Under the pieces are notes generated by a model, which was not told the DNA's origin, ran no database searches, and worked only from the letters and a program-made list of their open reading frames with translations. From Bacilli bacterium (GTDB taxonomy: Bacteria > Bacillota_I > Bacilli_A > RFN20 > CAG-826), in assembly GCA_050952725.1 (NCBI GenBank), contig JBMNLN010000001.1:578454-642453 (forward strand): a stretch of 64,000 nucleotides of DNA, in the 5' to 3' direction. Positions 1,550 through 22,342 of the stretch are shown piece by piece (the first letter of the stretch is position 1; every line of letters begins with the position of its first letter). Both the position numbers and the translations under genes were made by a program.

Positions 1550-3349
1550 ATGAAAAAAAATACCAAACTTTTTGGCGTCTTCGCTGCTCTATTTTTGTGT
1601 GCTTTGACTGCTCCCTTAGTGGGGTGTAGAGGCGGACAAGGCAGTTCTGTAAGTGAATCTATCGATGAGAACCCCGATGTGACGATTAAAATTTCATCTA
1701 CTGTCAATCAAGTGCCAATCGGGGGCACTATCACCATTCGGGTGTTAGTTATGGGCACAGCATCACGTGATGTGACTTGGTCAACATCAAACAGCAATAT
1801 TGCTACAGTCGATGGTGGCACCGTAACGGGGATTGCGGTTGGCGAAGTTGATATTACAGCAACTTTAGTCGCTTATCCAAGTAAAAGCGCCACACAGAGA
1901 GTCAATGTTATTGAAGCGACAGCTCCGACATCAATTAACGCGGGGGAAACCAATCAGCTCGGTTGGGTGGATGAAAACATTACCCTAGATTTAGAATTTG
2001 TTCCCGAAACCGCTGATAAACGTGTCAATTACACTTCGAATAATCCTGCTGTTGCAATTGTTAATGATGAAGGAGTAATTTCCTTCTTGAAAAAGGGTAC
2101 AGCTAATATCACCATTACTTCGTTCCTAGATTCAACCATCTCCACAACAATTAATTTCACAGTGAAAGATGGTCCTTTCTGGACGAACAAAGGTGGTTAC
2201 AGCAATTATTTTGATTATAGCCATCAAGGTGATGAAACCGATCCGTATGTTTCGACGAATTTCACGATGACTGGCGATAATTTACCAACATATGCTTGGT
2301 TTAAACTCCAACCTACTCAAAGATACTATGCTGAGGCAACGATTAGTTTTGGCGAAACCACGGTCGATCCCTGGACGAGAGTTGGCATTGGTTCGGCGAC
2401 AACAGATACCGATACCCGCGCTTTCTATTTCTCGGATAAGGAAGGACAAAAAACGATGATGCTCGATTTCCCAGTGGAATTTGGTGGCAATCAACACCAA
2501 AGCACGATTTGGCGCGTTAATGGAATCTATGCGATTGATAAAACCGACTTTAAATTAGGAATCTTACGCGATGGCAATGATTACTACTATACGATTAATG
2601 GTAAATTGTACTGGTTTGAAGAAAATAATCGCTTTACTGGCATTGGCAGCACTCCATTAATTATCGGGAAGGATGTAGCCTTTACTATTTTTGATGCCTA
2701 TAGCACAGTTGATGAGGAAGTCATTACTGCCAAACTTAATTCAGATGCCTACAAGGAGAGGTTCTTTTCAGCGTCTTCCTTAGGCGGACAAGTAATTTAC
2801 ACTAAAGATACCGATAGTTGGCGATTTAACAATCTTGGACGTGAGGATTGGAATAACATCTGTATGGGGCAACAACGGGCAAAAGCTCTAGGTGATAAAG
2901 GTCTTGCAAAAGGAAATTTCAAAATTGAATTTGATATTTCTGCGGTCGAATTTGAAGAGACAAATATTGCTAACTCGATGGCTGGTGTCACCATGAGACG
3001 ATATAACTCGTGGGAACCTGACATGGAATCCATCTGCTTAACAAAAGATCATATTCAATATCGGCATTGGAACTTAGAGTCACCAACCAACGCTTTTGAA
3101 ACAGGTAAATTAACTGCAGTTGATTCAGCGACATTTGCTTTGGTTGATGTGGAAAAAACTTATCACATTGCAATTGAACGCACGATCCTTGGTGCCCGTA
3201 GTGAATTCAAAGTGACGATGGATGGTGAAGTGATTCAATTTAATGAAGCGGACACTTATCGTGTCAACTTTATTGGCAAGTATTTAGTTTCCTTTGGTGC
3301 TAACGATTGCAAAGCCACAATTTCCAACTTTACGATTACTAATCTTTAA
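1550..3349 (+). CDS. Surface lipoprotein with two Ig-like (Big_2-type) domains and two unassigned beta-rich domains
   Basis: Start ATG 1550 after RBS. Lipobox LVGC, Ser-rich linker, Big_2 motifs 'VTWSTSNSNIATVDGGTVTGIAVGEVDITAT' and 'VNYTSNNPAVAIVNDEGVISFLKKGTANITITS'. Paralogous to 3390..5255. Confidence 0.8.
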   Translation: MKKNTKLFGVFAALFLCALTAPLVGCRGGQGSSVSESIDENPDVTIKISSTVNQVPIGGTITIRVLVMGTASRDVTWSTSNSNIATVDGGTVTGIAVGEVDITATLVAYPSKSATQRVNVIEATAPTSINAGETNQLGWVDENITLDLEFVPETADKRVNYTSNNPAVAIVNDEGVISFLKKGTANITITSFLDSTISTTINFTVKDGPFWTNKGGYSNYFDYSHQGDETDPYVSTNFTMTGDNLPTYAWFKLQPTQRYYAEATISFGETTVDPWTRVGIGSATTDTDTRAFYFSDKEGQKTMMLDFPVEFGGNQHQSTIWRVNGIYAIDKTDFKLGILRDGNDYYYTINGKLYWFEENNRFTGIGSTPLIIGKDVAFTIFDAYSTVDEEVITAKLNSDAYKERFFSASSLGGQVIYTKDTDSWRFNNLGREDWNNICMGQQRAKALGDKGLAKGNFKIEFDISAVEFEETNIANSMAGVTMRRYNSWEPDMESICLTKDHIQYRHWNLESPTNAFETGKLTAVDSATFALVDVEKTYHIAIERTILGARSEFKVTMDGEVIQFNEADTYRVNFIGKYLVSFGANDCKATISNFTITNL

Positions 3350-3389
3350 TTTGTCTTCATCGATATCAACTTTTTAAAGGAGAAAGAAA

Positions 3390-5255
3390 ATGAAAAATAG
3401 GAAAATCTTTTCGATTGTCAGCCTTTTCCTTCTTTTAAGTGTCGTCTCATGTCAACATGGCAGTTCGCAATCGCAAGATTCAACTAGCATTGCCGCACCG
3501 ACAATTGTTATCGAAGAAGTCGGTCAAACAGCAATTTATGTTGGTGATGAACTGCAATTGACGGCGACAGTTACCAATAATATCGACAATTTAACGCTCA
3601 AATGGAAATCCTCTAACGAAGAAATCGCTACTGTTAGCGATGCTGGACTTGTCAGGGCGCTCGCTCCAGGTAATGTCAACATCTGCGCTTATTTACAAGG
3701 CACAGAAATTACGAGTAATATCATTGCCCTTGGTGTTTTAATGCCGATTCCGATGACTGGAGTGGAAATTACGAATGTAATTGATCAGTATTTCCTCATT
3801 GATCAAACTCTTGATATCACCGTAGCGCTAACCCCAAATAATGCGCGTAACGACCTCGAGTTAATAGCTGAACCGAGTGCCAAAGCTGAAATTAACGGGA
3901 TGTGCGTCAAATTCCTTGATGAGGGAAACATCACCTTAACTGTAAGAAGTCGCGCGAATAATGAAGTTCAAGCACAAGTGATGGTTCAAGTGTTAGAAAA
4001 GAGCCCTTTCTTGCAAATGTCAAAAGGCTATTCGCTCAATATGTCCTTTCAAAACATGTTGAAATTAGAAAATGCCTATATCGATGTGAAGGATTATAGC
4101 GATGAAAACGAAAACCCCTTCCATCAAGCGATTGCGAATATAACGGCTACTCGGTTTTATTTCGAAACGCGCATCAACTTACAAAACTATCGTGGTGGCG
4201 AACACGGTTGGCCATATGTCGGGGTGGGCCATGCGACCGAAGTTTCTAATTATCGGGAAGGCCGTGCTTTATTCTTCTCACCGATGGATGAACATAAAGT
4301 AGTGACAATGGATTTAGGCAAATGCTTTGCGGCCGAGGGAAGTCCTCAAGATCAATTCTCCTTGTCCTACCAAGCAAACGGCTTAAAAGATATGGATATC
4401 ACCGCCTTAAAACTCGCGGTTTTACGTGATGAAAATGAATTCTATTTCCTCATCAATGATGTCCTTTATGGATATGAAGTCCGCGATTATACCAGCATTC
4501 CCACCAATCCAATCATTTATGGTAAGGATACTTATCATAAAATGAGCGATTGGTACATGACAACGGATGCCGATGTTATCAATGCCAAATTGCAAGGTCA
4601 AAATTACAAAAATATCTTTTTCCCTGGGAGAGATAATACTGTGGTCGACAATGAGAATAAAACGATTACCTTCTCTTGTAAGGATGGTAATAAATGGGAA
4701 GATAGTTACGCTGTGGCGACCTATGCTAAAACCATTGGTGATAAAGCTCTACTCGAAGGTGATTTTGAAATTGAATACGACATTACCGCGATTCATGCGA
4801 CAACTAACGAAATTGCAAAGCGCTTGAGTTTAATGTTATTACGCGCTGATACTTATCCCCATCTTTATGATTGCTTCGGTGTCAATAACTGGTGGTGGGA
4901 AGACAATAACGAAGTCTATGGAGCCGAGTATAAAACTTGGTCCGAAGGACAACCAGCCTATTCCTCAGCGAACGTGGTTAATGGTCGTATTGGCGATGAT
5001 GGCGTCCGGCAAAAACCTGCTGAACCTAACGATCACGTGGTGGGTCATTACAAAGTGACGCGCGTGATTGAAGGAGGAAAATCGGTCTTTACCTGGACTT
5101 TTACCCAAGCGGGAACGGATAAAACTGAAAATGTCTTTGCTTTCACTGGTAAAGAAAATGTCAAAGTGAGTTACACTGGTCGTTACCGGATTAATTTTGG
5201 TGCCGCTTGTGTCGATGGAACAATTGCGAACTGGACTTGGAAAAACATCGAATAA
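3390..5255 (+). CDS. Surface lipoprotein with Ig-like (Big_2-type) domains and two unassigned beta-rich domains (paralogue of previous gene)
   Basis: RBS AAGGAG, lipobox VVSC, Big_2 motif 'LKWKSSNEEIATVSDAGLVRALAPGNVNICAY'. Collinear similarity to 1550..3349, e.g. KLAVLRDENEFYFLIN vs KLGILRDGNDYYYTIN. Confidence 0.8.
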   Translation: MKNRKIFSIVSLFLLLSVVSCQHGSSQSQDSTSIAAPTIVIEEVGQTAIYVGDELQLTATVTNNIDNLTLKWKSSNEEIATVSDAGLVRALAPGNVNICAYLQGTEITSNIIALGVLMPIPMTGVEITNVIDQYFLIDQTLDITVALTPNNARNDLELIAEPSAKAEINGMCVKFLDEGNITLTVRSRANNEVQAQVMVQVLEKSPFLQMSKGYSLNMSFQNMLKLENAYIDVKDYSDENENPFHQAIANITATRFYFETRINLQNYRGGEHGWPYVGVGHATEVSNYREGRALFFSPMDEHKVVTMDLGKCFAAEGSPQDQFSLSYQANGLKDMDITALKLAVLRDENEFYFLINDVLYGYEVRDYTSIPTNPIIYGKDTYHKMSDWYMTTDADVINAKLQGQNYKNIFFPGRDNTVVDNENKTITFSCKDGNKWEDSYAVATYAKTIGDKALLEGDFEIEYDITAIHATTNEIAKRLSLMLLRADTYPHLYDCFGVNNWWWEDNNEVYGAEYKTWSEGQPAYSSANVVNGRIGDDGVRQKPAEPNDHVVGHYKVTRVIEGGKSVFTWTFTQAGTDKTENVFAFTGKENVKVSYTGRYRINFGAACVDGTIANWTWKNIE

Positions 5256-5257
5256 AA

Positions 5258-6412
5258 ATGAAAAAGTTTGCTCTGCTTTTGCCGTTATTTCTCATCCTTT
5301 GTTCTTGTATAAAGAATAATGGTTTAAGCAGTTCTTCAAGCGAAAATTCACAGCAACTTACATCAAGTCCCTACCGAAATTCTTTATGTTTAAAAGACGA
5401 AAATGGCGATGATATCCCCTTTTTCGGCGCTGATCCCGATATCATCAAAGGTGATGACGGATATTATTATTTGTATACTTCGGAGCAATATGTCAATGTT
5501 CCCAAACGGGGGCGAATGTTAGATCGCTGTCCAACTTATCGCAGTCGCGATATGGTGAATTGGACATATTGCTCCAGTGTCTTTTTGGACCAAGCTGTCG
5601 ATTTAAATAGTTTTTGTTACCCCGATGTAGGAATCTGGGCTCCATCCATTAACTATTTCAACGGTCAATATTATTGTTATTACTCTATCGGATATGGATG
5701 GACTGCTGGAGATAATCATCTTGAATATTGTGGGATTGGTCTTGCGACTTCCTTAAACCCCTATGGTCCTTGGACTCATTACGGTAAATTATTTGATTCC
5801 AAAGAATGCGGTGTGCCCGTCTCCATTGATCCCTTTGCCTTTCAAAAAGAAGATGGCAAAATATATCTATTTTGGGGTTCTTATAATGGGATATATGCGG
5901 TTGAAATGACAATTGATGGACTGGAAGTAATTGATTTAGAAAAAAAGATTGAAATTGTCGATCCAACCCCCTCCCTTAGCGAGAGTTACGAAGGGATATA
6001 TATCTTTAAAAAAGATGACACCTATTATTTTTCTGGCTCTCGGAATGGATTTGGCGGAGGATTACATTCTCGCTATGATGTGGCAAGCGGATATGCTTCT
6101 TCATTACTCGGACCTTATAAAGATTCGACTGGTCATGACTTATTTGGCGGGGGAGATCTAGTTATTGAAGGTGATTTCGAAGATGAGTATGGCTTACGTG
6201 GAACTGGGCATCACGCAATTATTCAAGATGAAATTGGCGATTATTGGATTATCTATCATTGCTATGATCCCCGCTGCCCAGTTGCTAATGAGCGCACCAT
6301 CTGTATTGACAAACTTATTTTTGAAGATAACCACACTTTCCATACGGAAAATTATGTAGGTTCTAACACTGTCAAAAATGGACCAAAAGTGGAGGTGTAC
6401 GCGCATGAATAA
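5258..6412 (+). CDS. GH43 glycoside hydrolase (arabinanase-like branch), lipoprotein
   Basis: Start ATG 5258, lipobox LCSC. Five-blade propeller catalytic motifs ADP (GADPDII), WAP, SIDPF, YEG, and GTGHHAI. Confidence 0.9.
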   Translation: MKKFALLLPLFLILCSCIKNNGLSSSSSENSQQLTSSPYRNSLCLKDENGDDIPFFGADPDIIKGDDGYYYLYTSEQYVNVPKRGRMLDRCPTYRSRDMVNWTYCSSVFLDQAVDLNSFCYPDVGIWAPSINYFNGQYYCYYSIGYGWTAGDNHLEYCGIGLATSLNPYGPWTHYGKLFDSKECGVPVSIDPFAFQKEDGKIYLFWGSYNGIYAVEMTIDGLEVIDLEKKIEIVDPTPSLSESYEGIYIFKKDDTYYFSGSRNGFGGGLHSRYDVASGYASSLLGPYKDSTGHDLFGGGDLVIEGDFEDEYGLRGTGHHAIIQDEIGDYWIIYHCYDPRCPVANERTICIDKLIFEDNHTFHTENYVGSNTVKNGPKVEVYAHE

Positions 6413-7649
6413 GTTAAAGAGAATTATCTTATTGGCCCCAGTTCTACTTTTTGTTGCTTGTGACATCAAACCAATAACGGACGAACAAGAATCATCTAAT
6501 TCAGGTGAAGCGAGTTATTCTTATGCGAGTGATTCTTTTGAGTTTCCCGATGTGGACATCGCTCCCAAACAGATAATTTTTGAAAATCCGTTGCGCTTCA
6601 AAATCAATGAAAATGGTGAAACGGATTACGCTCCCATCGCCGATCCATTTGTGATGCATGCCGATGATGGTTATTTCTATCTTGTTTGTTCCAATACTTA
6701 TGTGCATTCATTAACCGAAGGGCGCAAATTTGATTATGGGGCGATTTTTCGAAGTCCTGATTTAGATAATTGGGTCTATGTGAGCAGTGTCTTTGAAGAT
6801 GCCGATAATCCGTTTGCTTGGTATGAATGCGCTGATGAAGGAATCCGGATTCAAGTTAATGCGCCCAATCTTACTAAGGTGGGCAAACATTATATTTACT
6901 ATTACACTTTAACCGCTGGACAACTGCACAATCCAGGTATTGGTTATGCTTATTCCTTGAATCCTTACGGACCATGGACTCAAGGGGGAAAATTATTTAC
7001 CAGCAATGAAATAGGTGTTTATAACTCCAGTGACCAAGATATCTTTATCGATGATGATGGCCAAATTTATATCATTTGGGGTTCTGGCGATGGCATTTGG
7101 GTTTGTGAATTAGCTGAAGATGGGATGTCCTTAAAGGGCGGTCTTGAATATGCAAAACAAAACAAAAAATGGATTGCTGGTTGGGCGAATGAATTAGGGA
7201 ACAATATGCATAATTATGAAGCTGCCAATGTTATTAAGCGGAATAATCGCTATTATCTTTTCTTATCAACTGGAGGATGGGATGGCGGGGCTAATGCGGG
7301 ATATCACACCTTAGTTTGTGCGTCTAATTCAATTTACGGACCTTACTTTGATTCTCTTAATCGCGATATGAAAAGCGCCTATCAAGGCGATGACGTCTTG
7401 TTACCAGATAAAGATTATGTCTCAGGCGTCGGTCACTCCTGCGTTTACCGAGATGATAAAGGTGATGATTGGATTTTCTATCATGGATATGATCAAATTG
7501 GACGTTGCGAAGAAAATAATAAGCGAATACTATTCGTTGATAAATTAATTTATAACTCAGAAACAGGGATGCCGTATGTGTTGGATTATACCCCCTCATA
7601 TGGAGAACAATTTGGTCCCTATGTAGAGAGGTGCGCTTATGAAAATTAA
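6405..7649 (+). CDS. GH43 glycoside hydrolase, lipoprotein, with variant active-site motifs
   Basis: Start ATG 6405 after GGAGG, lipobox FVAC. IADPF and YEAA retained; WAP replaced by NAP and SIDP by SSDQD. C-terminal GVGHSCV. Confidence 0.87.
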   Translation: MNKLKRIILLAPVLLFVACDIKPITDEQESSNSGEASYSYASDSFEFPDVDIAPKQIIFENPLRFKINENGETDYAPIADPFVMHADDGYFYLVCSNTYVHSLTEGRKFDYGAIFRSPDLDNWVYVSSVFEDADNPFAWYECADEGIRIQVNAPNLTKVGKHYIYYYTLTAGQLHNPGIGYAYSLNPYGPWTQGGKLFTSNEIGVYNSSDQDIFIDDDGQIYIIWGSGDGIWVCELAEDGMSLKGGLEYAKQNKKWIAGWANELGNNMHNYEAANVIKRNNRYYLFLSTGGWDGGANAGYHTLVCASNSIYGPYFDSLNRDMKSAYQGDDVLLPDKDYVSGVGHSCVYRDDKGDDWIFYHGYDQIGRCEENNKRILFVDKLIYNSETGMPYVLDYTPSYGEQFGPYVERCAYEN

Positions 7650-8793
7650 GATAAAATCATTTTTTCTCGTGCTTACGACGATTTTATGGGGGTGTACAAA
7701 ACCACCGCTTGAAAACAGCGTGAGCGAAGATATTTATAAAGAACAAGGTGATGTCAACAATTCTTATACCAACCGCTTGCCGATTCATAAACAAAATGGA
7801 GAGGAAGAGTTTGTGCCAACTGCCGATCCCTTTTGCTTTCGTGACGATGATGGCACGTTTTATCTTTATTGTTCCAACACTTATTGCACCCAAGCTGATG
7901 ATGCGGAAGTGACTTTAGATTATGGGCCAATCTTCAAAAGTCAAACGATGACTTCGTGGCAGTGGTGTGGTTCGGTTTTCCGCGGTCAAGAAACTTATGC
8001 ACTTTGGAATAATGGCGAAGGCGGGGTTTGGGCTCCGACAGTTATCAAAATCAATAATCACTACAACTTTTATTACACCTTAGGTGCTGGTGGTTTTTAT
8101 AGCGAATATACCGGGATTGGTGTTGCGACTTCCCCGACACCTTACGGACCTTGGACACACTATGGGAAAGTCTTCAATTCTGGTGAAATTGGCGTAGCCA
8201 ATTCCATTGACCCCTATGTCTTCATTGATGATGGAAAAATCTTGATGGCGTTTGGAAGTGGTGATGGGATTTGGATTGTAGAATTAAATGCTGACGGGAC
8301 AGCTTTAAAAGATGGATTACAAGCGCAATACAATAACAAGCGACAAATCGCAGGTTTTAATATTTTTCAACAAGATAATTACGAAGCCTGTTTCATTCAA
8401 AAGAAAAATGGTTATTACTACATCTATCTTTCAACTGGTAGTTGCTGTGCGGGATTATCCTCCACCTACCACGTTGTGGTTGGGAAAAGCGAATCAGTTT
8501 ATGGCCCCTATCTGGGGAGTAATGGCAAACCGATTGATACCTATAATCGCGGCGATACTGTAGTTGAAAGTCATATGACCAAGGGAACTGGAACGGGACA
8601 CTGTGCAATCATTCAAGATAGTCGTGGTCTAGATTGGATTGTTTACCACGCTTATGATCCGAATGAAGAAGGATGGAAACAACATGAACGCGTCCTTTAT
8701 ATCGATCGCCTATATTGGAATGAAAAAGGCTATCCCCTTTGTAAGGACCGTTATCCAACTCATGAAGAAGTGCCAGGACCATATCTTGAATAA
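7639..8793 (+). CDS. GH43 glycoside hydrolase (arabinanase-like branch), lipoprotein
   Basis: Lipobox LWGC. Motifs TADPF, VWAPTV, NSIDPY, YEA, STGSCC, GTGHCAI. Confidence 0.9.
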   Translation: MKIKIKSFFLVLTTILWGCTKPPLENSVSEDIYKEQGDVNNSYTNRLPIHKQNGEEEFVPTADPFCFRDDDGTFYLYCSNTYCTQADDAEVTLDYGPIFKSQTMTSWQWCGSVFRGQETYALWNNGEGGVWAPTVIKINNHYNFYYTLGAGGFYSEYTGIGVATSPTPYGPWTHYGKVFNSGEIGVANSIDPYVFIDDGKILMAFGSGDGIWIVELNADGTALKDGLQAQYNNKRQIAGFNIFQQDNYEACFIQKKNGYYYIYLSTGSCCAGLSSTYHVVVGKSESVYGPYLGSNGKPIDTYNRGDTVVESHMTKGTGTGHCAIIQDSRGLDWIVYHAYDPNEEGWKQHERVLYIDRLYWNEKGYPLCKDRYPTHEEVPGPYLE

Positions 8794-8807
8794 GGAGGAA
8801 TTAGCGA

Positions 8808-11777: not shown

Positions 11778-11794
11778 TAGGGAGGTAATCACAT

Positions 11795-13339
11795 ATGTCG
11801 AAAAAGAAATTCTTAGTCTTAGCCTGCACGAGCATTGTCGCATTAGCCGCGTGCGGAGGCGGGCCAACCTCTACCTCAAGTGGTGGCGGTGTTCCCTCGG
11901 TTGACCCTTACGTCGATGATACGATTGATGATGTGTCTTATGATGGGAATGGTGATATCGTTTTTGATAATGTGAAGTTAAAAATGTGGTCGGTTTGTAC
12001 CGATCCTGATGCGGCTTATCAAGATGAAATCATCAATGATTTTAACACGGCATACAAAGGCCAAATTGAGGTGGAAATCTATCACGAATCTCGTTATACC
12101 ATCTTTGGAAATTTTGCCAAAACCGTTTCGCAAGATCCTAATAATGCACCTGATTTATTCTATGGATACGGTGAAAGAATTGGAGCGATGGTCAGCAATA
12201 AGCTTTTTGTTCCGATGGACATTTATCTCGAAGCGGCTAATATTGGTTTTAACAAATCATATTTTGAACCGATACTAATCGATAACTGCTATGTGAGTGG
12301 TTACTTATATGGTTTACCGATTTCAGTCGATACTTCAATAGCTTTCTGTCGCAAAGACATCCTGACGAAAAACAATTTAGAAGTTCCGTATACTTATGCG
12401 GAATTAATGGATGTCTGTAATGCTTTAGTTTCAAAGGCCAACGCGGGCGAATTGTGGGTTCGTGGGAATGATACCGCTAATGTCGCGCTCGGCAATGTCT
12501 ATGAGTGGCGAAAATACGACGTTGAAGTTGAAGGGACATACTATCCATTTCCGATTTCTCCTGGTGATATGTGGGTCAATGCTTATATCGCTCAAACTGC
12601 CGCTTTGCAAAATGGCGGAATTTTAGTCGATGAAAACGGTATGCCAGCATACAATACTATGGAAGTTGCTAATGGTTTACAATTGCTTCGCGATTGGCTA
12701 ATCCCCACGGAAACAAGCGCTAATAACACAGCCCTTAGTAAAATCGATTTAAACTATGACGCTGGCGTTACCGATTTCTATGCTGGGACCTCTGCCTTCT
12801 ATCTTGCGGGTGCATGGGATGGTTATGGGAATACCGCAAGAATGGACACGATGTATGCGGCCGACGGTGGTTCAAGTAATACGATGGCCATCATCAATCC
12901 TTCAGAATTATTCGCCGCTGACTTAACGAAAGATTATGCCAAACACATCTTTGGAGATTCGCATGCGGTATCGATTGTAAAAACCGTTACCAGTCGTACA
13001 AAAAGAATCGCGGCTGCAGTTTTTAGCAATTATTTAGCTGAGAATTGCGGTGGAGTTTGGATAAAAGCTGGACATTTACCAGCCTCCTTAGTGGTCCAAC
13101 AATCCAATGATTTATATCTTAACAATGAGTTTTACTTAAAATATGTCCAATATTATGGAACGACTGATTTGTATCGAACGATGCCAGTCACGGTTTATTA
13201 CGATTTCATCATGGAATCCTTCGGTACCGCGTTAAAGAAGGCAATGCTCTCTCGTTATCGCGAAATTCCAATCTCACAACTATTGCAAGAATCCTACGAT
13301 GATTGTATTGCCCGAATTAGAGATCTTGAAGAATTATAA
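11795..13339 (+). CDS. Carbohydrate ABC transporter substrate-binding lipoprotein
   Basis: Lipobox LAAC, 'APDLFY', 'LYGLPISVDTSIAFCRKDIL...PYTYAEL' typical of family 1 sugar-binding proteins. Followed by two permeases. Confidence 0.92.
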   Translation: MSKKKFLVLACTSIVALAACGGGPTSTSSGGGVPSVDPYVDDTIDDVSYDGNGDIVFDNVKLKMWSVCTDPDAAYQDEIINDFNTAYKGQIEVEIYHESRYTIFGNFAKTVSQDPNNAPDLFYGYGERIGAMVSNKLFVPMDIYLEAANIGFNKSYFEPILIDNCYVSGYLYGLPISVDTSIAFCRKDILTKNNLEVPYTYAELMDVCNALVSKANAGELWVRGNDTANVALGNVYEWRKYDVEVEGTYYPFPISPGDMWVNAYIAQTAALQNGGILVDENGMPAYNTMEVANGLQLLRDWLIPTETSANNTALSKIDLNYDAGVTDFYAGTSAFYLAGAWDGYGNTARMDTMYAADGGSSNTMAIINPSELFAADLTKDYAKHIFGDSHAVSIVKTVTSRTKRIAAAVFSNYLAENCGGVWIKAGHLPASLVVQQSNDLYLNNEFYLKYVQYYGTTDLYRTMPVTVYYDFIMESFGTALKKAMLSRYREIPISQLLQESYDDCIARIRDLEEL

Positions 13340-13360
13340 GAAAAATTAGAAAGAGAAAAG

Positions 13361-14359
13361 ATGGGATTAAAGAGAACTAGTCAAGGCATTTCTGTTAGTG
13401 AGTATGCCGTCAAGGTTGAGAGACAACGCCAAATCTTTAGAAAATATTGTATTGGCTTCCTTTTCTTAGCGCCTTATCTTTTCTTTTTCGTTCTCTTTTT
13501 TGCTGTCCCATTCTTTAAAGGAATTACGATTTCCTTCTTCAGATATAATATCGCCGATACAACTGATATCGTTTGGAGAGGGGTGCAAAATTACACCAAG
13601 ATTTTATTTGATAAGAATTCAACTTACTATAAAACTTTTTGGAATGGGATGAAAAACACTTTGATGGCTACGGCGATTTTAGTACCTTTATCCATTGTCA
13701 TCCCTTTGCTGCTTGCGACTTTAGTAAATACCAAACCAGTAGGATATAAGTTCTTTAGAGCGATTATTTATCTTCCTTCAATTTTTCCAATGACAGCGAC
13801 GGGAGTGATTTTCCTTAATTTATTCAACAATAATTACGGTTTTGTCAGCGCGATTTTTGGCGATCATATTAATTGGTTAATGGACCCGACCTATAACTGG
13901 ATTCTGATTATTTTCTTCTGTATATGGTCGGGGATTGGCGGAAATTTTATTATCTTTTTAGCGGGCTTACAAACAGTTGATCCCTCCCTCAAAGAAGCTT
14001 CATCTATCGATGGTTGCAATCTGACCAAGAGATTTTTTCATGTGACCTTAGCGCAGATTAAACCGCAATTAATTTTATGTTTTTTTAACACAACGATTGG
14101 GTACATGAATCTGTATGGACAAAACTACCTTTTAGGTCAATATGTCTCCGATCGGATGCAAATTCAAACCACGGTTTTTGTGATTCAAGAGTTGATGATG
14201 GGCACCAACTTCCAAGTTTATGGAATGGTTTCAGCAATGGCGATTTGTCTAGGTTTATTTATCATGACGATTTCAATCATTCAATTAATTGTTACAAGAG
14301 AACGGAAAGGGGGGAACAAGCATGCTAAAGAATACTTCAGCATCAAGGGAGCCAATTAA
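13361..14359 (+). CDS. Carbohydrate ABC transporter permease (MalF-type)
   Basis: Multiple TM segments, EAA loop 'LKEASSIDGCNLTKRFFHVTLAQIKP'. Confidence 0.93.
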   Translation: MGLKRTSQGISVSEYAVKVERQRQIFRKYCIGFLFLAPYLFFFVLFFAVPFFKGITISFFRYNIADTTDIVWRGVQNYTKILFDKNSTYYKTFWNGMKNTLMATAILVPLSIVIPLLLATLVNTKPVGYKFFRAIIYLPSIFPMTATGVIFLNLFNNNYGFVSAIFGDHINWLMDPTYNWILIIFFCIWSGIGGNFIIFLAGLQTVDPSLKEASSIDGCNLTKRFFHVTLAQIKPQLILCFFNTTIGYMNLYGQNYLLGQYVSDRMQIQTTVFVIQELMMGTNFQVYGMVSAMAICLGLFIMTISIIQLIVTRERKGGNKHAKEYFSIKGAN

Positions 14360-15188
14360 AATTGTTGCTTTCTTTGTTTTGCTGTTTTTCAGTGTCATTG
14401 TGCTTTTTCCGCTTCTATGGGCAGTAGTTAACTCCCTTCGCGAAGCAGAAGATATCTTTTATTATCCTAATTCCTTTTTCCCAACCAGCCTCAGTAAATG
14501 GACATTTGGCAATTATAAGGATGTTTTTGCTAATGATAATTATCCCGTGGGTCGATGGTTTTTGAATTCTTTATTTGTCTCTTCATTATCAACCATCTTT
14601 TATGTGATAATCGCCTCACTTGCTGCGTACGCTTTTGTTTTCTTAAAACTTCAGTTTGCAAATGCCTTGTTTTACTTTTTAATCGGAACGATGACGATTC
14701 CGGGCATTGTCATCATGGTGCCCCAATTCACTCAAATGGTCGACTTTGGACTAATTAAAAATTTATGGGGATTAATTCTCCCAGGATTAGGCGGAGTTTA
14801 TGGGCTTTTCTTAATTAGACAATTCTTTATGTCTATTCCTTTTGATTTGATTGAATCCTCGCGGATTGATGGAGCGAAAGACTACAAAATTTTCTTGAAA
14901 GTCGTCGTTCCTTTAGGGAAATCAATTTTATTGGTCCAGGGGATGTTCGGATTTTTAGGCGCTTGGAACGATTTACAATGGGCACAATTAATTGTCGCGC
15001 AAGCCCCAAAAGAAATGTGGACATTAGCCGTCGGTTTAGCCAAAGTGACAGAAGGAAATTTAACTTACTCGCGCTTAGGTTTGCAATTAGCTTGTACGAT
15101 TATCTCCATGCTTCCCATCTTATTCATGTATTTATTCGTGCAAGATAAGATTGTCGAAGGTGTGGCTATGTCAGGTATTAAAAGGTAA
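14322..15188 (+). CDS. Carbohydrate ABC transporter permease (MalG-type)
   Basis: Start ATG 14322 after GGGGGA. EAA loop 'LIESSRIDGAKDYKIFLKVVVPL', 'FLGAWND', C-terminal 'VEGVAMSGIK'. Confidence 0.93.
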   Translation: MLKNTSASREPIKIVAFFVLLFFSVIVLFPLLWAVVNSLREAEDIFYYPNSFFPTSLSKWTFGNYKDVFANDNYPVGRWFLNSLFVSSLSTIFYVIIASLAAYAFVFLKLQFANALFYFLIGTMTIPGIVIMVPQFTQMVDFGLIKNLWGLILPGLGGVYGLFLIRQFFMSIPFDLIESSRIDGAKDYKIFLKVVVPLGKSILLVQGMFGFLGAWNDLQWAQLIVAQAPKEMWTLAVGLAKVTEGNLTYSRLGLQLACTIISMLPILFMYLFVQDKIVEGVAMSGIKR

Positions 15189-15201
15189 AAGGTGAACAAT
15201 T

Positions 15202-16992
15202 ATGGATATTTATCAACCAATGAATCCCCAAGAAGCCAAGAAGGCGTTCCAAAAGATGAATCGACAAATTATCGATGATAACGTCAATGCTTTTGTGTGT
15301 TTAAAAGACATCAATAAAATCTATCCTAACGGTGTCCACGCGGTTTACAACTTTAATATTGATATTAACAAGAACGAATTTATTGTTCTTGTCGGTCCTT
15401 CAGGCTGTGGCAAATCAACGGTTTTACGGATGATTGCTGGATTAGAAGAAATCACGAGTGGATATTTATATATCGATAAAACTTTGGCAAATTCTCAACC
15501 GAGTAAAGACCGCAACATCGCCATGGTCTTCCAAAGTTATGCGCTGTATCCGCATATGAATGTTTTCGACAATATGTCATTTTCCCTAAGGATTAACAAA
15601 GCTCGCTTACCTAAATTGAATAAAAACGGCGAACAAGTTTATGGAATCGATACTAAGGAAATCAGAAAAATCAAACGCGAATTAAAGAAAAATCCAGAAG
15701 ATCAAGATTTAATTGCGAAGCTCCATGATTATGAAAATAATCTGAAACCTTTGTATGTAAAACGAAATTATACGAAGGATGAATTAAACAAGATTGTCTT
15801 TGATGCCGCAGAAATTCTCAATCTAGGAGAATATTTAGATCGAAAGCCAAAAGAATTATCAGGTGGACAAATGCAAAGAGTCGCGCTTGGACGCGCGATT
15901 GTCAGAAACCCCAAACTTTTTCTGATGGATGAACCATTAAGCAACCTTGATGCCAAATTAAGAGTATCGATGCGAAGCGAACTAGTGCGGATTCATAATG
16001 ATGTTAAAGCAACAACTATTTATGTCACTCATGATCAAGTTGAAGCAATGACCATGGCTGATCGAATTGTCGTCATGAATAAGGGATGGATTCAACAAAT
16101 CGCCACCCCACAGGAATTATATGAGAGCCCAAGCAATATTTTTGTCGCGACCTTTATCGGTTCTCCTGCAATGAATTTGATTGAAGGAACATATAACAAG
16201 GGAAGCATCACTTTTAAAAATGGTGACATTCTTAAATTAACTAAAGACGAAAAGAAATCCTATGAAAAGTTTATTGAGGAATCTTTAACTTATTATCACT
16301 CCCTGCAAAAATTGATTGAAAAATCGCATATTGAGTTGCTCGAACAAATCGATAGCATCACTTCATTATTAGATGAGAACGGTTTTAACGATGAGGTTCA
16401 AATGTTTTTTAAGTCAGTCCTCAATTTGGTTTTTAGTGATGAAAAACAGCCGCGATTTGCAAAGATTATTCCTGAAATAAACCTTGTTTTAGAAAAGAAG
16501 AGCAAGTTATTAGCCCAGAAAAATCTTAAAAAATTGCAAGAGTTAATTCTCGAAGAAGAAACGGAGGTTTCAAAGGCAATCGAAAAAATCAATTCAAATA
16601 AATATTCCTCAATAACAGCAAATAAAGCACCCGTTTCCAAAAAGAAAAACAAACAAATTGTTAAGCGCAACTTACTGGATGATAAGAAGATTATTGATGA
16701 ATATATTGCCCAATATCAATCCTCAAAAGATGGCAACCATCGTATATTTGTTGGAATCCGTCCAGAATATTTTAATTTAGATAATTCCCAAGATAACTTT
16801 ATTTTAGAGATTAAAGGTCAGGTTGAACAAGAATATCTTGGTACTGAAACCCTACTTCACTTTGATTATTGTGGCACAGAAATTATCGCTAAATTGCCGA
16901 GCAAAACTTTTACGTCTAGGCAAAATCTTCGCCTAACTGTAAGCAATGATAAGATGTTTATTTTCGATGCGATTAGTGGATTAAGAATATAG
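15202..16992 (+). CDS. Sugar ABC transporter ATP-binding subunit (MalK/MsmX-like) with two large insertions
   Basis: Walker A GPSGCGKS, Q-loop VFQSYALYPHM, signature LSGGQ, Walker B FLMDEPLSNLD, YVTHDQ. 596 aa versus ~370 aa for typical MalK/MsmX. Confidence 0.93.
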   Translation: MDIYQPMNPQEAKKAFQKMNRQIIDDNVNAFVCLKDINKIYPNGVHAVYNFNIDINKNEFIVLVGPSGCGKSTVLRMIAGLEEITSGYLYIDKTLANSQPSKDRNIAMVFQSYALYPHMNVFDNMSFSLRINKARLPKLNKNGEQVYGIDTKEIRKIKRELKKNPEDQDLIAKLHDYENNLKPLYVKRNYTKDELNKIVFDAAEILNLGEYLDRKPKELSGGQMQRVALGRAIVRNPKLFLMDEPLSNLDAKLRVSMRSELVRIHNDVKATTIYVTHDQVEAMTMADRIVVMNKGWIQQIATPQELYESPSNIFVATFIGSPAMNLIEGTYNKGSITFKNGDILKLTKDEKKSYEKFIEESLTYYHSLQKLIEKSHIELLEQIDSITSLLDENGFNDEVQMFFKSVLNLVFSDEKQPRFAKIIPEINLVLEKKSKLLAQKNLKKLQELILEEETEVSKAIEKINSNKYSSITANKAPVSKKKNKQIVKRNLLDDKKIIDEYIAQYQSSKDGNHRIFVGIRPEYFNLDNSQDNFILEIKGQVEQEYLGTETLLHFDYCGTEIIAKLPSKTFTSRQNLRLTVSNDKMFIFDAISGLRI

Positions 16993-17001
16993 GTAGAAAA
17001 G

Positions 17002-17994
17002 ATGAAGAATAATCAATACATGAACCCAATTTACAAACACGAATTTCCCGATCCGACTATTGGCAAAGTTGGCGATACTTATTATTTGTATTCTACTGCT
17101 GCTTTTGGCGATTATCATGAAAATGGCCAGCCTTTCTTTTCTCGCGGGGTGATTATTAAGAGTAAGGACCTCTGTAATTATGAATATGTAGGCGAAATTT
17201 TTTCCGAGGATGAATACCCTAGATGGGGCACTAAAAATGCTGGGGTTTGGGCACCGGACTTTCTTGCCTTAAACGGAAAATACTATCTGTACTATTCACT
17301 TTCAATTTTATTTGATGATAATGCTTCAATTGGTATCGCTGTTAGTGATTCGCCTGAAGGCCCTTTTAAAGATTTAGGTCCAATTATTAGGTCGAAAGAT
17401 ATCGAGGTCAATAACTCGATTGATCCGACCGTCTTTCGCGCATATGATGGAAAATTATATATTATTTGGGGCTCATATCGTGGCATTTATGGCTCCGAAC
17501 TCAGTGATGATGGTCTTGCGCTTGTAGGTGAAAAAAAACATATTGCCGGCTTTGATAAGGGCGAAATTGACTTGGACACATATGAAGCGGCGTTCATGGT
17601 CAAAAGAAAAGGTATGTATTATCTATTTTTTTCCACTGGTAAAACTCTAGATGGTGATAAATGCACCTATCATGTTGTTTGTGCTAAGAGCAAATATCCT
17701 CTCGGTCCGTTTTCCGATAGCCAAGGTAACACATTGCAAGGTCGGAATGAGGGGGATGTTGTCGTTACTGGGCTTGATAACCACTTTGTTGGAACTGGGC
17801 ATTGTTGTGTAAAGGAAGTAGGAGGAGATTTTTGGATTTTCTATCATGGAGTTGAAATTGACCAAAAATATCCAGAAGGATACTCGCGCCGTATCTTAAG
17901 TATGGATAAATTGCTTTGGGATGAAAACGAGATGCCATATGTCGAAGGTAAAGTTTGCTCCTATCAAGAATTAAAAGAGGGTCCCAAAGTATGA
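17002..17994 (+). CDS. GH43 glycoside hydrolase, cytoplasmic (no signal peptide)
   Basis: FPDPTI, VWAPDF, NSIDPT, YEAA, GTGHCC motifs. N-terminus is hydrophilic. Confidence 0.9.
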   Translation: MKNNQYMNPIYKHEFPDPTIGKVGDTYYLYSTAAFGDYHENGQPFFSRGVIIKSKDLCNYEYVGEIFSEDEYPRWGTKNAGVWAPDFLALNGKYYLYYSLSILFDDNASIGIAVSDSPEGPFKDLGPIIRSKDIEVNNSIDPTVFRAYDGKLYIIWGSYRGIYGSELSDDGLALVGEKKHIAGFDKGEIDLDTYEAAFMVKRKGMYYLFFSTGKTLDGDKCTYHVVCAKSKYPLGPFSDSQGNTLQGRNEGDVVVTGLDNHFVGTGHCCVKEVGGDFWIFYHGVEIDQKYPEGYSRRILSMDKLLWDENEMPYVEGKVCSYQELKEGPKV

Positions 17995-18095
17995 GTAAAT
18001 ATCGATGCTATCAATATGAAAAAGGAGGATTTACTTATCGAATTTAGAAAAAGGAAAAAATTTTTAGGTGAAAAATATCATGAAAGGAGAAAAAT

Positions 18096-19340
18096 ATGTT
18101 CACTAAAAAACGAAAAATAAATATTATCTTTTCGACTTTAGTTGTCGGCATGACACTTCTTGCTGGTAACGGCTTGATGAATTCGCTGCACAAATCAGCA
18201 AAAGTGGTCGGTGATTTCACTTACACCGTAACACTAGATGATACTTTGGTAATCGGTGATTACACATCGTTTAACGCTAAAACAGGTTTAGGCAATGATG
18301 TGGAAATGAAAGCCGTTGGCGCTTCCGCCTTTAACACCGGATTTATCACCTTAGCTAGCGAAGGTTATGTCTATAACAATGCGGCAATCACTGGCATTGG
18401 TCGAGTCACAGTCGTTTTAGCAAGCGGGAATGCCGCATTATCTTATGGAGTTTACGCAGATGATTTTACGAAAACCGTCAATATTACTTCGGGCACGGAA
18501 ATCACCCTTGATTATGCTAGTAACTTCTTTAAAATTGCAGCAGGTGTAGGTGGGGCTAAAATTGAAAGCGTCTTAATCAAATTTGAGTGCTTGGAAGCGA
18601 AGAAATACGATATCCATTGGGTCGGACGTGTTTCCGAAAGTGTGGAAGACAAAGGTGTCACCTTTAACACTAGGCAAGAAACGGCGATGGCTGGTTGGGG
18701 CATTCTCGATTGGGATACCGCTGAATTAAAAGCGGGATTTGGTCTTTTAACTGGTAATTTTATCGTCGAATTCGATTTGGATACGATTGAAGCAGAAAGT
18801 AACAACCATCAATACAAATTCGCTTTAGCGCTCAAACGTGTTAACGAAAACCATGAGGGCTTCTTTGTTTCGGATCGGTTTGGGATGAGCAACCAATACT
18901 GGAATGATAATAATGAAGTGTGCGGCATTGATTATCGTGCGCTTAAGAGTAATCAACCTGGTTATGGTAATGCCGATGGGATTGATCCTAATTATATTTA
19001 TGGGGTTGATGGTGATACCAAAGTAGCGATGAGCCGAGTGGGTAATGTAAAACATGAACTAATTGGCCACATCACTGCAAACGTCAACGTTGTCGGTCAT
19101 CACAAAATCGAACGGACAATTGTCGATACGACCTCGACTTTTGTTTGGACCTTCAAGAGCGTTGGTACTGAAACTTATGTCAACGTCATGCAATGGGCGG
19201 TCGACTACACTGGACCCAGTAAACCTAACTATGCAACTTCAACCACGATTACCACGCATTATTTAGGTGATTATGCGGTTTCATTTGTCGCCGCTGGTGT
19301 CAATGCTTCGTTTAGCAATTACAAAGCAACCATACTATAA
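18096..19340 (+). CDS. Secreted/membrane-anchored protein of unknown function sharing its C-terminal domain with the two Ig-lipoproteins
   Basis: RBS AAGGAG; basic then hydrophobic N-terminus with no lipobox. C-terminal 'LLTGNFIVEFDL...RFGMSNQYWNDNNEV...VVGHHKIERTI' aligns with 'LLEGDFEIEYDI...CFGVNNWWWEDNNEV...VVGHYKVTRVI' of 3390..5255. Confidence 0.75.
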   Translation: MFTKKRKINIIFSTLVVGMTLLAGNGLMNSLHKSAKVVGDFTYTVTLDDTLVIGDYTSFNAKTGLGNDVEMKAVGASAFNTGFITLASEGYVYNNAAITGIGRVTVVLASGNAALSYGVYADDFTKTVNITSGTEITLDYASNFFKIAAGVGGAKIESVLIKFECLEAKKYDIHWVGRVSESVEDKGVTFNTRQETAMAGWGILDWDTAELKAGFGLLTGNFIVEFDLDTIEAESNNHQYKFALALKRVNENHEGFFVSDRFGMSNQYWNDNNEVCGIDYRALKSNQPGYGNADGIDPNYIYGVDGDTKVAMSRVGNVKHELIGHITANVNVVGHHKIERTIVDTTSTFVWTFKSVGTETYVNVMQWAVDYTGPSKPNYATSTTITTHYLGDYAVSFVAAGVNASFSNYKATIL

Positions 19341-19373
19341 TCGCTGTCGTTTAAACAATTGATGGCATTCACT

Positions 19374-19414
19374 TGAGTGGGGTCAAATGATTCATGCAAA
19401 TTTGGCCCTACTCA
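19374..19414 (+). other. Intra-operon 15-bp RNA stem-loop without U-tract
   Basis: TGAGTGGGGTCAAAT (19374-19388) pairs with ATTTGGCCCTACTCA (19400-19414), including two G-U wobbles that work only on the + strand. 11-nt loop. Confidence 0.65.
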
Positions 19415-19463
19415 TTAATCGAAAAAATATTCGATAGTTTTTATGTTGGAGGTAAGGCTTAAA

Positions 19464-20390
19464 ATGAAATTTGAAAGCCGATTGCTAGTTTTGGCGTTAC
19501 CGTTTCTTTTAGTATCTTGCCAAAAGGGAAATCTGAGTATGGATTCAAGTTCTTCCTCAAACACAAGCGTTAATGTTAGCGATCATGCGCGCGTGATTAT
19601 CTTAGCTGGTCAATCAAATATGGAAGGAAATTCCTGGATTAATCATCTAGAAAATCATTATGACAAGCAACAGATTAGACTTTGGACTGAAGGATATGAA
19701 TCCTCCCAGATTATCTTTAATAATTCTTGGGGAAACTACACTTCTTTTAATCGCTATGAAAAAGTCGAATTAGGTCAAGGTATGAGCATGAACCATTTTG
19801 GCCCCGAAGTTGGAATTGCTGAAACTATTGATATGGCTGGATTTAGCGAACCAGTTTATATGATTAAATTTGCTTGGGGAGGCTCCAATCTCTATAATCA
19901 ATGGCGATCCCCCTCAAGTGGCGAGACTGGTCCGCTTTATGTGCAATTTGTCGACTTTATCAAAAGTTCTTTACTAACCTTAGAAATCAAGGGATTAACC
20001 CCAAAAATTCACGCCTTATGTTGGATGCAGGGAGAATCGGATGCGGATAATAATACACCAAATCCGGATAGTTATTATCAAAGATTAAAAGATTTTATTA
20101 CCGATCTTCGCGAGGAATTTAATGATTACGCCTGTAATACGGGGATTGGTTTTGTGGATGCTTATATTTCGGATTCATATGTATGGGCGCGATATCAAAC
20201 GGTTAATGCAGCCAAAAAACAACTTGCTGATGAAGATGAACTCAACACCGTTATTGATACTATTGCCTTAAAATTACCCTATGACAAAGAGCCGACCGCC
20301 GGCGTTGATCCTTATCACTATGATTCTAATGGGATGATTGAATTAGGTCGGGCATTTGGGGCAACTTTATTTGAACGATTTCTCTATTAA
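19464..20390 (+). CDS. SGNH carbohydrate esterase (SASA/DUF303, CE6-like), lipoprotein
   Basis: Start ATG 19464 after GGAGG, lipobox LVSC. GQSNM nucleophile motif, WMQGESD, and DxxH (DPYH). Confidence 0.88.
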   Translation: MKFESRLLVLALPFLLVSCQKGNLSMDSSSSSNTSVNVSDHARVIILAGQSNMEGNSWINHLENHYDKQQIRLWTEGYESSQIIFNNSWGNYTSFNRYEKVELGQGMSMNHFGPEVGIAETIDMAGFSEPVYMIKFAWGGSNLYNQWRSPSSGETGPLYVQFVDFIKSSLLTLEIKGLTPKIHALCWMQGESDADNNTPNPDSYYQRLKDFITDLREEFNDYACNTGIGFVDAYISDSYVWARYQTVNAAKKQLADEDELNTVIDTIALKLPYDKEPTAGVDPYHYDSNGMIELGRAFGATLFERFLY

Positions 20391-21350
20391 TTACGTTTTT
20401 TTAATGATATGCATGGGATAGATATTATGAACGGTATTAGCAAAATCGTTTTTTTCGATGCGTTCAAGCATATTTTCACATGCATCCTTAATCACTTGAC
20501 TCCAATCGATTGATAGCCCATTAATCGGGGAGATAATTGGAAGGCGGTCACCGATTCCATCAAACCCAAAAATATCAATCTTCTTATATCTGTGTTTTTT
20601 CAATAATCTTTTAATATTGATGGCGATTTCATCGTTATAGGCAAAAACGAAATCGTTTTCATTTTCAATAATTGCATTAGCGAAAAACTCGTAGATATCA
20701 TCTTCATAAGCGCATTCATAAATATCGAGATTGATATTTGCTTTTTCCAATTCATTTTTAAATCCATTGACTCTTTTTTTGATGACCCCTTTGACCTTTG
20801 GAGAAAGATAACAAGGACGTTTTAATCCTTTTGCGATACATTCTTTGGCGATGAGAACTCCTCCTTGGAAGTCATTACTATCAAAAGAAGAAATAGAATT
20901 GTAATAAGAAGTACGACCAATTAAAGTTACTGGGATTTCTTTTTTCTCACATAATTCATTCGCTTGCTTATCGATATTAATTAGACTGATAATCCCCACG
21001 CATTGGTTCGCTAATGCAAACACAATATCTTCATATTCAGCTTCTTCCTTTTCGCACATCCGCAATAAGCATTGATATCCGTGTTTGCTAAGCTCGCGAA
21101 TAACAGCATCAGCCATTAAGGAGAAGTAGCAGTTAGCCAGATTATAGACAATCACAGTGATGATTTGCGATTTTCCCAATGATAAATAAGATGATAAATT
21201 CGATGGAATATACCCCATCTCTTTGGCTTTAGCACGAACCCTTTCTTTTGTGGCCAGACTAATATCGGAGCAATCTCTCAATGCTCTTGATGCTGTGTTT
21301 AATGAGACACCTAATCTATCAGCGATGTCTTGCAGACGGACTCTTTTCAT
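20391..21350 (-). CDS. LacI family transcriptional repressor
   Basis: Likely start ATG 21350 (319 aa): MKRVRLQDIADRLGVSLNTASRAL...SLATKERVRAKAKEMGYIP is a LacI HTH plus hinge, followed by a periplasmic-binding-protein-like effector domain (GFDG). Confidence 0.93.
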   Translation of the reverse strand: MKRVRLQDIADRLGVSLNTASRALRDCSDISLATKERVRAKAKEMGYIPSNLSSYLSLGKSQIITVIVYNLANCYFSLMADAVIRELSKHGYQCLLRMCEKEEAEYEDIVFALANQCVGIISLINIDKQANELCEKKEIPVTLIGRTSYYNSISSFDSNDFQGGVLIAKECIAKGLKRPCYLSPKVKGVIKKRVNGFKNELEKANINLDIYECAYEDDIYEFFANAIIENENDFVFAYNDEIAINIKRLLKKHRYKKIDIFGFDGIGDRLPIISPINGLSIDWSQVIKDACENMLERIEKNDFANTVHNIYPMHIIKKT

Positions 21351-21542
21351 AGTTGCTAAATATATCTTAAATATGAATCTACGTTTTAAAATTCTTTGAC
21401 AATTTAATGTTATCATTAATCTGGGTTTCAGACTATTGTGTTTAACTCTATCGTATAAATAATGCGATGCCAAACTTTATGAAAAGGTCATATATTAACT
21501 ACACTCAATATTTTCTATATAATAATTGTAGGAGGTAAAACA

Positions 21543-22327: not shown

Positions 22328-22342
22328 TTTTAATGAGAACCC

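Follow-up and report, generated by a model that had tools for sequence, protein, structure and literature searches.

The 64,000-nucleotide stretch of DNA analysed here (assembly GCA_050952725.1, contig JBMNLN010000001.1, positions 578,454 to 642,453; hereafter the window) belongs to a Bacilli bacterium of CAG-826, which like CAG-449 is a family of the order RFN20. Our subject is a predicted glycan-utilization locus of 13 co-oriented open reading frames (ORFs) on the plus strand at window positions 1550-20390. The first six intergenic gaps are 40, -1, -8, -11, 14 and 17 nt and the last six are 21, -41, 13, 9, 101 and 102 nt; at 10 of the 12 junctions, therefore, the genes overlap or lie no more than 40 nt apart, and the last two gaps are wider. 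For several genes a start other than that of the longest ORF is preferred (BigA 1550, GH43a 5258, permease Q 14322 and, probably, the esterase 19464), which changes the gap of -1 to 2 nt before GH43a and that of -41 to -38 nt before permease Q. Lipoboxes are found at seven N-termini (LVGC, VVSC, LCSC, FVAC, LWGC, LAAC and LVSC), and one further product, of 414 residues, has a hydrophobic N-terminus without a cysteine and is thus secreted or anchored. Checks of ORFs, Pfam domains and N-termini bear out the tally of 13 genes, seven lipoproteins and one secreted protein in a preliminary description of this DNA, with the proviso that the last may be anchored instead.

The first two genes encode lipoproteins. 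BigA (1550-3349), a putative surface glycan binder, has two Big_2 immunoglobulin (Ig)-like domains and, C-terminal to them, a tandem of ConA-like domains (M and C); BigB (3390-5255), also matched by Big_2, is a divergent second member of the BigA family (about 25-27% identical to BigA). Three lipoproteins of glycoside hydrolase family 43 follow, namely GH43a (5258-6412; Pfam GH43, 174 bits), GH43b (6405-7649) and GH43c (7639-8793), the latter two belonging to a core that is conserved in related loci. The next gene encodes a predicted cytoplasmic alpha-mannosidase of family GH38 (8808-11777; 989 residues, Ams1-like long type). The ATP-binding cassette (ABC) importer comprises a solute-binding lipoprotein (11795-13339; SBP_bac_1/8), permeases P (13361-14359) and Q (14322-15188; both BPD_transp_1, the start of Q overlapping the end of P) and a 596-residue ATPase of the MalK/UgpC type (15202-16992; ABC_tran and OB_MalK). 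The last three genes encode a single-domain cytoplasmic GH43 of 330 residues (17002-17994; Pfam, 186 bits), the 414-residue surface protein (18096-19340; signal or anchor) with an N-terminal beta-sandwich and a ConA-like C domain, and a lipoprotein of the SASA family (PF03629, SGNH-type; 19464-20390, ORF start possibly 19443) that is a predicted carbohydrate O-acyl esterase. No signal peptide was seen on the GH38 or the 330-residue GH43.

Upstream of BigA, a promoter-like site (TTTACA-17-TATCAT; 1499-1527, plus strand) overlaps a perfect 20-bp palindrome, TTACATTAGCGCTAATGTAA (1500-1519), a putative LacI-type operator that would overlap the -35/-10 region. Neither the window nor the 1.33-Mb genome holds a second copy of the palindrome, and the independent contig L003 keeps 19 of the 20 bases, 46 bp upstream of the BigA orthologue. 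The site that overlaps it is the best-scoring plus-strand promoter-like site, although promoter and terminator scans performed no better than on shuffled sequence; another such site at 19312-19341 is a possible promoter of the esterase gene. Convergent with the locus, a gene on the minus strand (20391-21350) encodes a LacI-family regulator (Pfam LacI HTH and sugar-binding domains), the candidate repressor at 1500-1519. A LacI gene accompanies homologous loci, and the product is 53% identical in L048. We predict that the locus is a LacI-controlled operon with a palindromic operator at its promoter, and we infer that the 13 genes are transcribed as a single unit.

By tblastn, the window proteins were compared with eight loci from GTDB genomes, two further relatives and contigs with GH43 homologues. 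These share a core of the GH43b and GH43c lipoproteins, the binding protein, two permeases, the long ATPase, one or two Big_2 lipoproteins and usually the small cytoplasmic GH43, often accompanied by the SASA esterase and the LacI gene. The contigs and genomes that independently keep the core synteny number more than 12, and the core is found in metagenome-assembled genomes (MAGs) of uncultured gut Bacilli/'Mollicutes' and in a few other Firmicutes; minimal versions contain the GH43s and the importer only. Since gene order is identical in independent metagenomic contigs, the 13-gene arrangement is not due to chance. BigA orthologues (41-62% identity) head the homologous loci, GH43b orthologues are 46-60% identical in L003 and L015-L021, GH43c is the best conserved surface enzyme, and orthologues of the cytoplasmic GH43 in L048 and L050 are 63-66% identical. 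The binding protein is 58-71% identical in L003 and L015-L022, in loci of both types described below, and its PDB matches are weak and uninformative. Long ATPases of 547-615 residues recur in homologous loci, and those of G034, G066 and CAG:449 have 462-479 residues; in the window protein, a Lys/Glu-rich insertion of about 200 residues lies in the C-terminal regulatory part, between the OB_MalK region and a TOBE-like C-terminus. The SASA esterase is present in most homologous loci, either before or after the core.

Two types of locus can be told apart by their exo-glycosidase. The usual partner of the core is a GH36 alpha-galactosidase, encoded after the ATPase in L016, L017, L019-L022, G034, G066 and L052; L015 and L018 end before this position, and no GH38 was found in L015-L022, G034, G066 or L052. 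The GH38 type is represented by a Logan contig (L003), a JGI contig (L051 and L048) and an ENA contig (L050), and in at least four contigs the GH38 gene has GH43c on one side and the binding-protein gene on the other. This type adds to the core GH43a (six orthologous clusters at 58-62% identity among 5.8 billion proteins), BigB and the 414-residue protein, all three of which are confined to it, and the JGI contig has the whole 16-gene layout, with a GH36 alongside the GH38. BigB, GH43a, GH38 and the 414-residue protein are co-inherited across lineages that are 54-70% identical in protein, which suggests a dedicated addition for a form of the substrate that contains mannose. The locus is thus a conserved, uncharacterised variant of the Gram-positive-type polysaccharide utilization locus (PUL), and its GH38 form is rare. 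No characterised locus of this composition was found in the literature searched, as the preliminary description had claimed, but uncharacterised homologous loci are common in MAGs.

What the GH43 enzymes release is central to what the locus does. The family profile matches all four proteins at 132-186 bits (cut-off 32.2). In an alignment of 10 sequences the catalytic columns are kept, with invariant D60 (ADP) and D192 (SIDP) and near-invariant E246 (NYEA), which from general knowledge of the family we take to be the base Asp, the pKa-modulating Asp and the acid Glu. Against the NCBIfam arabinanase equivalogs (AbnA, AbnB, BT0367 and BT0360), the four proteins score 56-125 bits (GH43c 96-107), far from the cut-offs of 480-800, and the name 'arabinanase' is probably wrong for them, judging from these profiles and from the catabolic genes described next. 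Beta-D-galactofuranosidases have been reported in GH43 subfamilies 3, 8, 30, 31, 32, 34 and 37, among them the enzymes of Helbert et al. (2019) and A. niger XynD (reviewed in PMC12290620). They share the five-bladed propeller and the canonical catalytic triad with the window GH43s, and theirs is the sole reported GH43 specificity that gives a sugar, galactose, which the locus-bearing relatives can catabolise. We know of no characterised Firmicutes locus with GH43 galactofuranosidases of this kind.

To see which sugars the locus-bearing genomes can use, we examined 251 genomes of the order, 20 of which, the host genome included, have a GH43c orthologue. The arabinose isomerase gene araA is present in one of these 20, the window's own, and in 6 of the 251 overall; it was not found in the 19 other locus-bearing genomes, 17 of which are at least 90% complete, and xylA was found in none of the 20. 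By comparison, galK is present in 19 of the 20 (18 of the 19 relatives) against 192 of the 251 sampled (one-sided Fisher p 0.03). In G066 (genus g68), LacI, galT and galK genes continue a GH36-type locus on the same strand (L044 and L045, combined coordinates 7670-26264), so that the Leloir genes are physically joined to it. An importer and a cytoplasmic GH43 make sense only if the released sugar is used, and among the reported GH43 products galactose alone fits the relatives; as the GH43s resemble furanosidases, a beta-D-galactofuranoside is the natural candidate source. Thus, galactose, and hence a beta-D-galactofuranoside source, appears likelier than arabinose as the GH43 product. The furanoside part of the preliminary proposal, a furanoside-decorated alpha-mannan, is accordingly supported, if indirectly, by the presence of galK, the lack of araA and xylA in the relatives and the existence of galactofuranosidase subfamilies, while its mannan backbone fared worse, as described below.

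We then propose a model in which a LacI-controlled operon with an ABC importer harvests a microbial or fungal O-acylated heteroglycan containing galactofuranose (Galf) and alpha-mannose, to which relatives would add alpha-galactose. BigA, BigB and the 414-residue protein would tether the polymer to the membrane by means of ConA/galectin-like domains in tandem, borne on Ig stalks. The SASA esterase would strip O-acyl groups, and the three GH43 lipoproteins would cut furanosidic linkages. The resulting oligosaccharides may be imported via the binding lipoprotein and the permease/ATPase complex and degraded to monosaccharides in the cytoplasm by the signal-less GH43 and the GH38. The GH43s would most likely free D-galactose from beta-D-galactofuranosides rather than L-arabinose, and GH38 would free alpha-linked mannose from the same imported oligosaccharides. 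The order of events, from capture through hydrolysis and de-acylation to ABC import and cytoplasmic finishing, had been put forward in the preliminary description, and it agrees with where the products are predicted to reside, with the conserved synteny and with the lectin-like fold of the Ig-lipoproteins. Binding, enzyme specificities and substrate are what we infer from these data, and we regard this galactofuranoside model as having about an even chance of being right.

Several observations weigh against the galactofuranoside model. Among solved and curated proteins, those closest to the four GH43s are all endo-1,5-alpha-L-arabinanases, albeit distant relatives (E values of 1e-16 to 1e-27), and databases name the homologues 'arabinan endo-1,5-alpha-L-arabinosidase'. 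The host has araB, araD and araA genes of its own, so arabinose use may be possible for this copy of the locus. In addition, 76% of the genomes sampled in the order have galK, and GH36 would be enough to account for it in the GH36-type loci. Surface GH43s alone would not yield mannose-containing fragments from a mannan backbone. Finally, the gaps of about 100 bp at 17995-18095 and 19341-19442, together with the promoter-like site before the esterase gene, may permit up to three transcripts.

Much of this evidence would suit a plant L-arabinan or arabinogalactan operon of the Geobacillus AbnA/AbnEFJ/AbnB type, in which endo-arabinanases would attack the polymer at the surface, the importer would take up arabino-oligosaccharides, an intracellular GH43 would free arabinose from them, and GH38 (GH36 in relatives) would be an unrelated passenger acting on other alpha-glycosides that are imported. 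The arabinan system of Geobacillus stearothermophilus (AbnA, AbnEFJ, AbnB; PDB 3cu9 and 3d5y, among others) follows the same logic, with an extracellular GH43, an ABC importer for oligosaccharides and a single-domain GH43 in the cytoplasm. In the PDB, the cytoplasmic GH43 of the window is matched best by AbnB-type structures, which are intracellular arabinanases (about 1e-26), and the minimal loci with GH43s and importer would fit a homopolymer. However, the similarity is far below equivalog level, and the window locus has no GH51, GH27 or ara genes. It has instead lectin-like lipoproteins, an esterase and a GH38 (GH36 in relatives), and the esterase and both exo-glycosidases are without an obvious role on arabinan. 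No GH51, GH127 or other arabinan accessory enzyme was found in any version of the locus, araA is absent from all the other locus-bearing genomes, and the host araB-araD-araA genes, read from ORF sizes, N-terminal sequences and an AraA_N match, lie at a distance of 150 kb, next to another glycan locus (G000:C1:424543-446003). A plain arabinan operon was our first working hypothesis and was downgraded after the co-occurrence of araA, xylA and galK had been examined; we now consider it unlikely, though a serious contender. Were the GH43s ordinary arabinanases, the locus would be a tidy, unsurprising plant-fibre operon with an odd mannosidase passenger.

If the GH43s are instead galactofuranan hydrolases, as the galactofuranoside model would have it, routine 'arabinanase' annotations of this clade in gut metagenomes are wrong, and a gut-bacterial route to fungal or bacterial Galf glycans becomes testable. 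It is tempting to speculate further that the arabinanase-like GH43 clade consists of beta-D-galactofuranan or galactofuranoside hydrolases, that the Big_2/ConA and 414-residue proteins form a new family of surface glycan binders (or even of hydrolases that would provide the mannan cleavage otherwise missing), and that the whole is an unrecognised PUL type with which wall-less gut Bacilli feed on Galf-containing glycans of microbes or fungi, with a GH38 form for Galf-mannose glycans. Taken together, this fuller set of claims is rather doubtful.

The surface lipoproteins were analysed by profile and structure comparison. In BigA and BigB, the roughly 400 residues after the two Big_2 domains belong to no Pfam or NCBIfam family, and a profile search of 1.84 billion representatives recovered only 80 clusters with this region, 64 of them below 1e-10. 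An AlphaFold2 model of BigB residues 203-621, built from 30 sequences, consists of two tandem beta-sandwiches (mean predicted local distance difference test score, pLDDT, 84.5; predicted template modelling score, pTM, 0.87). Its Foldseek matches are BT3469, tandem-repeat galectins, receptor-binding domains of clostridial neurotoxins and CBM66, and the modelled region is accordingly assigned a ConA-like lectin/CBM fold. The 414-residue protein matches no Pfam or NCBIfam family, and its model is of low confidence (pLDDT 66), with weak fold matches to legume lectins and GH16. BigB and the 414-residue protein share a C-domain subtype with an NNxxWxDxNEVxGxEY insertion that is absent from BigA.

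From the model, the Ig-lipoproteins are probably glycan binders. A catalytic role was considered for them and found no support: in a scan of the larger family members, the only domains recognised were Big_2, a CBM9-like domain and Listeria-Bacteroides repeats, with no fused catalytic domain; family-wide conservation falls on Trp, Arg, Asn, Tyr and Asp columns, with no Glu pair and no invariant acidic pair; and the folds matched are mostly those of lectins and CBMs. Given the related BT3469/DUF1080-like and GH16 folds, there may still be an enzyme among the unassigned surface proteins. The lipoproteins had been likened to SusE and SusF of Bacteroidota, an analogy of function and not of family: in architecture the lipid anchor, Ig-like stalk, tandem beta-sandwich domains and a gene beside the transporter are common to both, and glycan binding is predicted for the window proteins from the model. 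No sequence or Pfam relationship was seen, only Big_2 and related Ig domains being matched. The window locus also has an ABC transporter in place of a SusC/SusD partner, and the anchor sits in a monoderm cytoplasmic membrane. This rare lectin-like family may be the monoderm counterpart of the surface glycan-binding proteins of Bacteroidota.

The GH38 is intact and matches its family at domain and motif level, with Pfam scores of 217 (PF01074), 72 (PF09261), 118 (PF07748) and 48 bits (PF17677) and an Ams1-like_1st domain; alpha-mannosidase activity is predicted. Its sequence contains HSHLDLAW and PDSFG, presumably the metal-binding and nucleophile motifs of the family. The closest PDB entries are 7vqo (4e-101) and 7ufr (3e-92). 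The latter has the same domain set and is likewise encoded with an ABC importer, as a cytoplasmic Ams1-like long GH38 fed by that importer; we take 7ufr-7ufu to be tetrameric enzymes of a Bifidobacterium longum N-glycan system. Unlike such systems, the window locus has no endo-beta-N-acetylglucosaminidase, GH125 or beta-mannosidase, and the partners of its GH38 are GH43s. The GH38 is the only one in the host genome, and the family occurs in 12 of the 251 genomes of the order. Relatives that are 40-42% identical to it are encoded in an operon of a binding protein, two permeases, an unassigned 567-residue protein, GH125, GH76 and GH38. By this comparison, the GH38 appears to have been recruited into a GH43 locus here, with the classic GH76-GH125-GH38 operon in relatives.

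These comparisons bear on the substrate favoured in the preliminary description, an acylated furanoside-decorated alpha-mannan (Aspergillus-type galactofuranomannan or arabinomannan) whose core is degraded by GH38. Such a substrate would account for the place of GH38 inside the operon in at least four contigs and for BigB, GH43a and the 414-residue protein, which occur only alongside GH38 and thereby suggest a dedicated mannose-related extension; the host also has manA and a second mannoside locus (surface GH125, two GH130, DUF1861), and the case for galactose and Galf is itself drawn from the co-occurrence of catabolic genes. The GH38 is cytoplasmic, however, and no recognised surface endo-alpha-mannanase (GH76, GH99 or GH92) was found in the locus, nor a homologue of the relatives' GH76 in the host genome; recognised enzymes would thus not suffice to break down an alpha-mannan backbone extracellularly. 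The binding protein is 58-61% identical between the window and L015-L022, which are without GH38, so the class of ligand imported is probably the same with or without mannose, and the JGI lineage has GH36 too. We therefore consider an alpha-mannan backbone decidedly unlikely. The GH38 was also considered as the defining enzyme of the system and rejected: it is an accessory within a locus family in which most members have GH36 instead and one lineage has both, and its nearest counterparts belong to the separate GH76-GH125 operon. That the locus is a mosaic without a single substrate, an ancestral GH43/ABC locus joined by unrelated cytoplasmic exo-glycosidases and an esterase that would act on any small glycosides entering the cell, and possibly read as several transcripts, is very unlikely: accessory content and position do vary (SASA before or after the core; GH36, GH38 or both), and the last two genes follow gaps of about 100 bp with the promoter-like site at 19312-19341, but the GH38 gene is tightly packed in mid-operon, 14 and 17 nt from its neighbours, the GH38-type gene set is co-inherited across lineages, and the operator stands ahead of BigA in two of them.

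Returning to the galactofuranoside model, the esterase that it assigns to de-acylation scores 81.4 bits against the SASA profile (cut-off 24.8) and contains GQSNMEG, the block-I serine motif; a PDB search gave no solved relative at E <= 0.01. Together, the components place the locus beside the Gram-positive PULs (gpPULs) of Roseburia and Eubacterium rectale, in which genes for degradative carbohydrate-active enzymes cluster with those for a LacI-type regulator and an ABC transporter of carbohydrates (Sheridan et al. 2016, PMC5320581). The window locus combines four GH43s, the GH38 and the SASA esterase with a binding protein, two permeases and an ATPase, and with a LacI gene and operator. It differs from the described gpPULs in that its extracellular parts are lipoproteins, not sortase- or wall-anchored multimodular enzymes, in that it encodes dedicated non-catalytic Ig-plus-lectin lipoproteins, and in its apparently wall-less host.

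The host itself may explain this surface architecture. Its genome is a single contig of 1.33 Mb, 95% complete, and a six-frame search of the complete contig did not find the transpeptidase domain of penicillin-binding proteins (PF00905). The host, a gut bacterium with a reduced genome, is thus probably without peptidoglycan. Peptidoglycan has been predicted to be absent in the RFN20 families CAG-826 and CAG-288, as have sortases across RFN20 (PMC10868615). In an apparently wall-less host an all-lipoprotein surface apparatus is to be expected, because the lipid anchor keeps proteins at the surface. RFN20/RF39-like Bacilli are common but uncultured in human and animal guts, and their diet is largely obscure; the locus family would offer them a compact, all-lipoprotein means of polymer harvest.

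A co-oriented catabolic operon lies directly upstream of the locus (G000:C1:574128-579760, which includes window positions 2-1310) and encodes a GFO/IDH/MocA oxidoreductase, a Zn-dependent alcohol/polyol dehydrogenase, an FGGY sugar kinase, a DeoC/LacD aldolase, a DeoR regulator and a cupin of 180 residues with a weak match to D-lyxose (mannose) isomerase. It is possible that this operon handles a product of the locus. The DeoR and cupin genes were considered as members of the locus and rejected, both being absent from L003. Just past the LacI gene, window positions 21543-22103 encode a 186-residue lipoprotein (lipobox LSGC) of no Pfam family. Further on (23243-24667) lies a gene for a 474-residue protein with a xylose-isomerase-like TIM barrel at residues 209-434 and a weak Trehalase match (E 2e-4) at residues 50-139.

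Elsewhere in the genome, the araB-araD-araA genes at G000:C1:424543-446003 have as neighbours a 288-residue ORF in the opposite orientation, three ORFs (1004, 948 and 1103 residues) with lipoprotein-type N-termini, a 655-residue ORF that resembles GH42 beta-galactosidases from its N-terminus, ABC-importer-like ORFs and a GH43 of 286 residues. The second mannoside-type locus (G000:C1:794800-812000) encodes an 842-residue GH125 lipoprotein, a DUF1861 protein, a GH130 protein, a Big_2 lipoprotein, an 864-residue protein with F5/8 type C and GH130-like domains, and ORFs resembling ABC importer components, with genes for two GH30 proteins just upstream. Among the related loci, the JGI version (L048) has, between the GH36 and a 406-residue surface protein, a 183-residue Imp-YgjV membrane protein (9399-9950) that the window lacks. 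In L003 the locus is preceded at a distance of a few kb by a gene for a 1019-residue RVT_1 reverse transcriptase (2108-5167), perhaps part of a retron-like element or group II intron.

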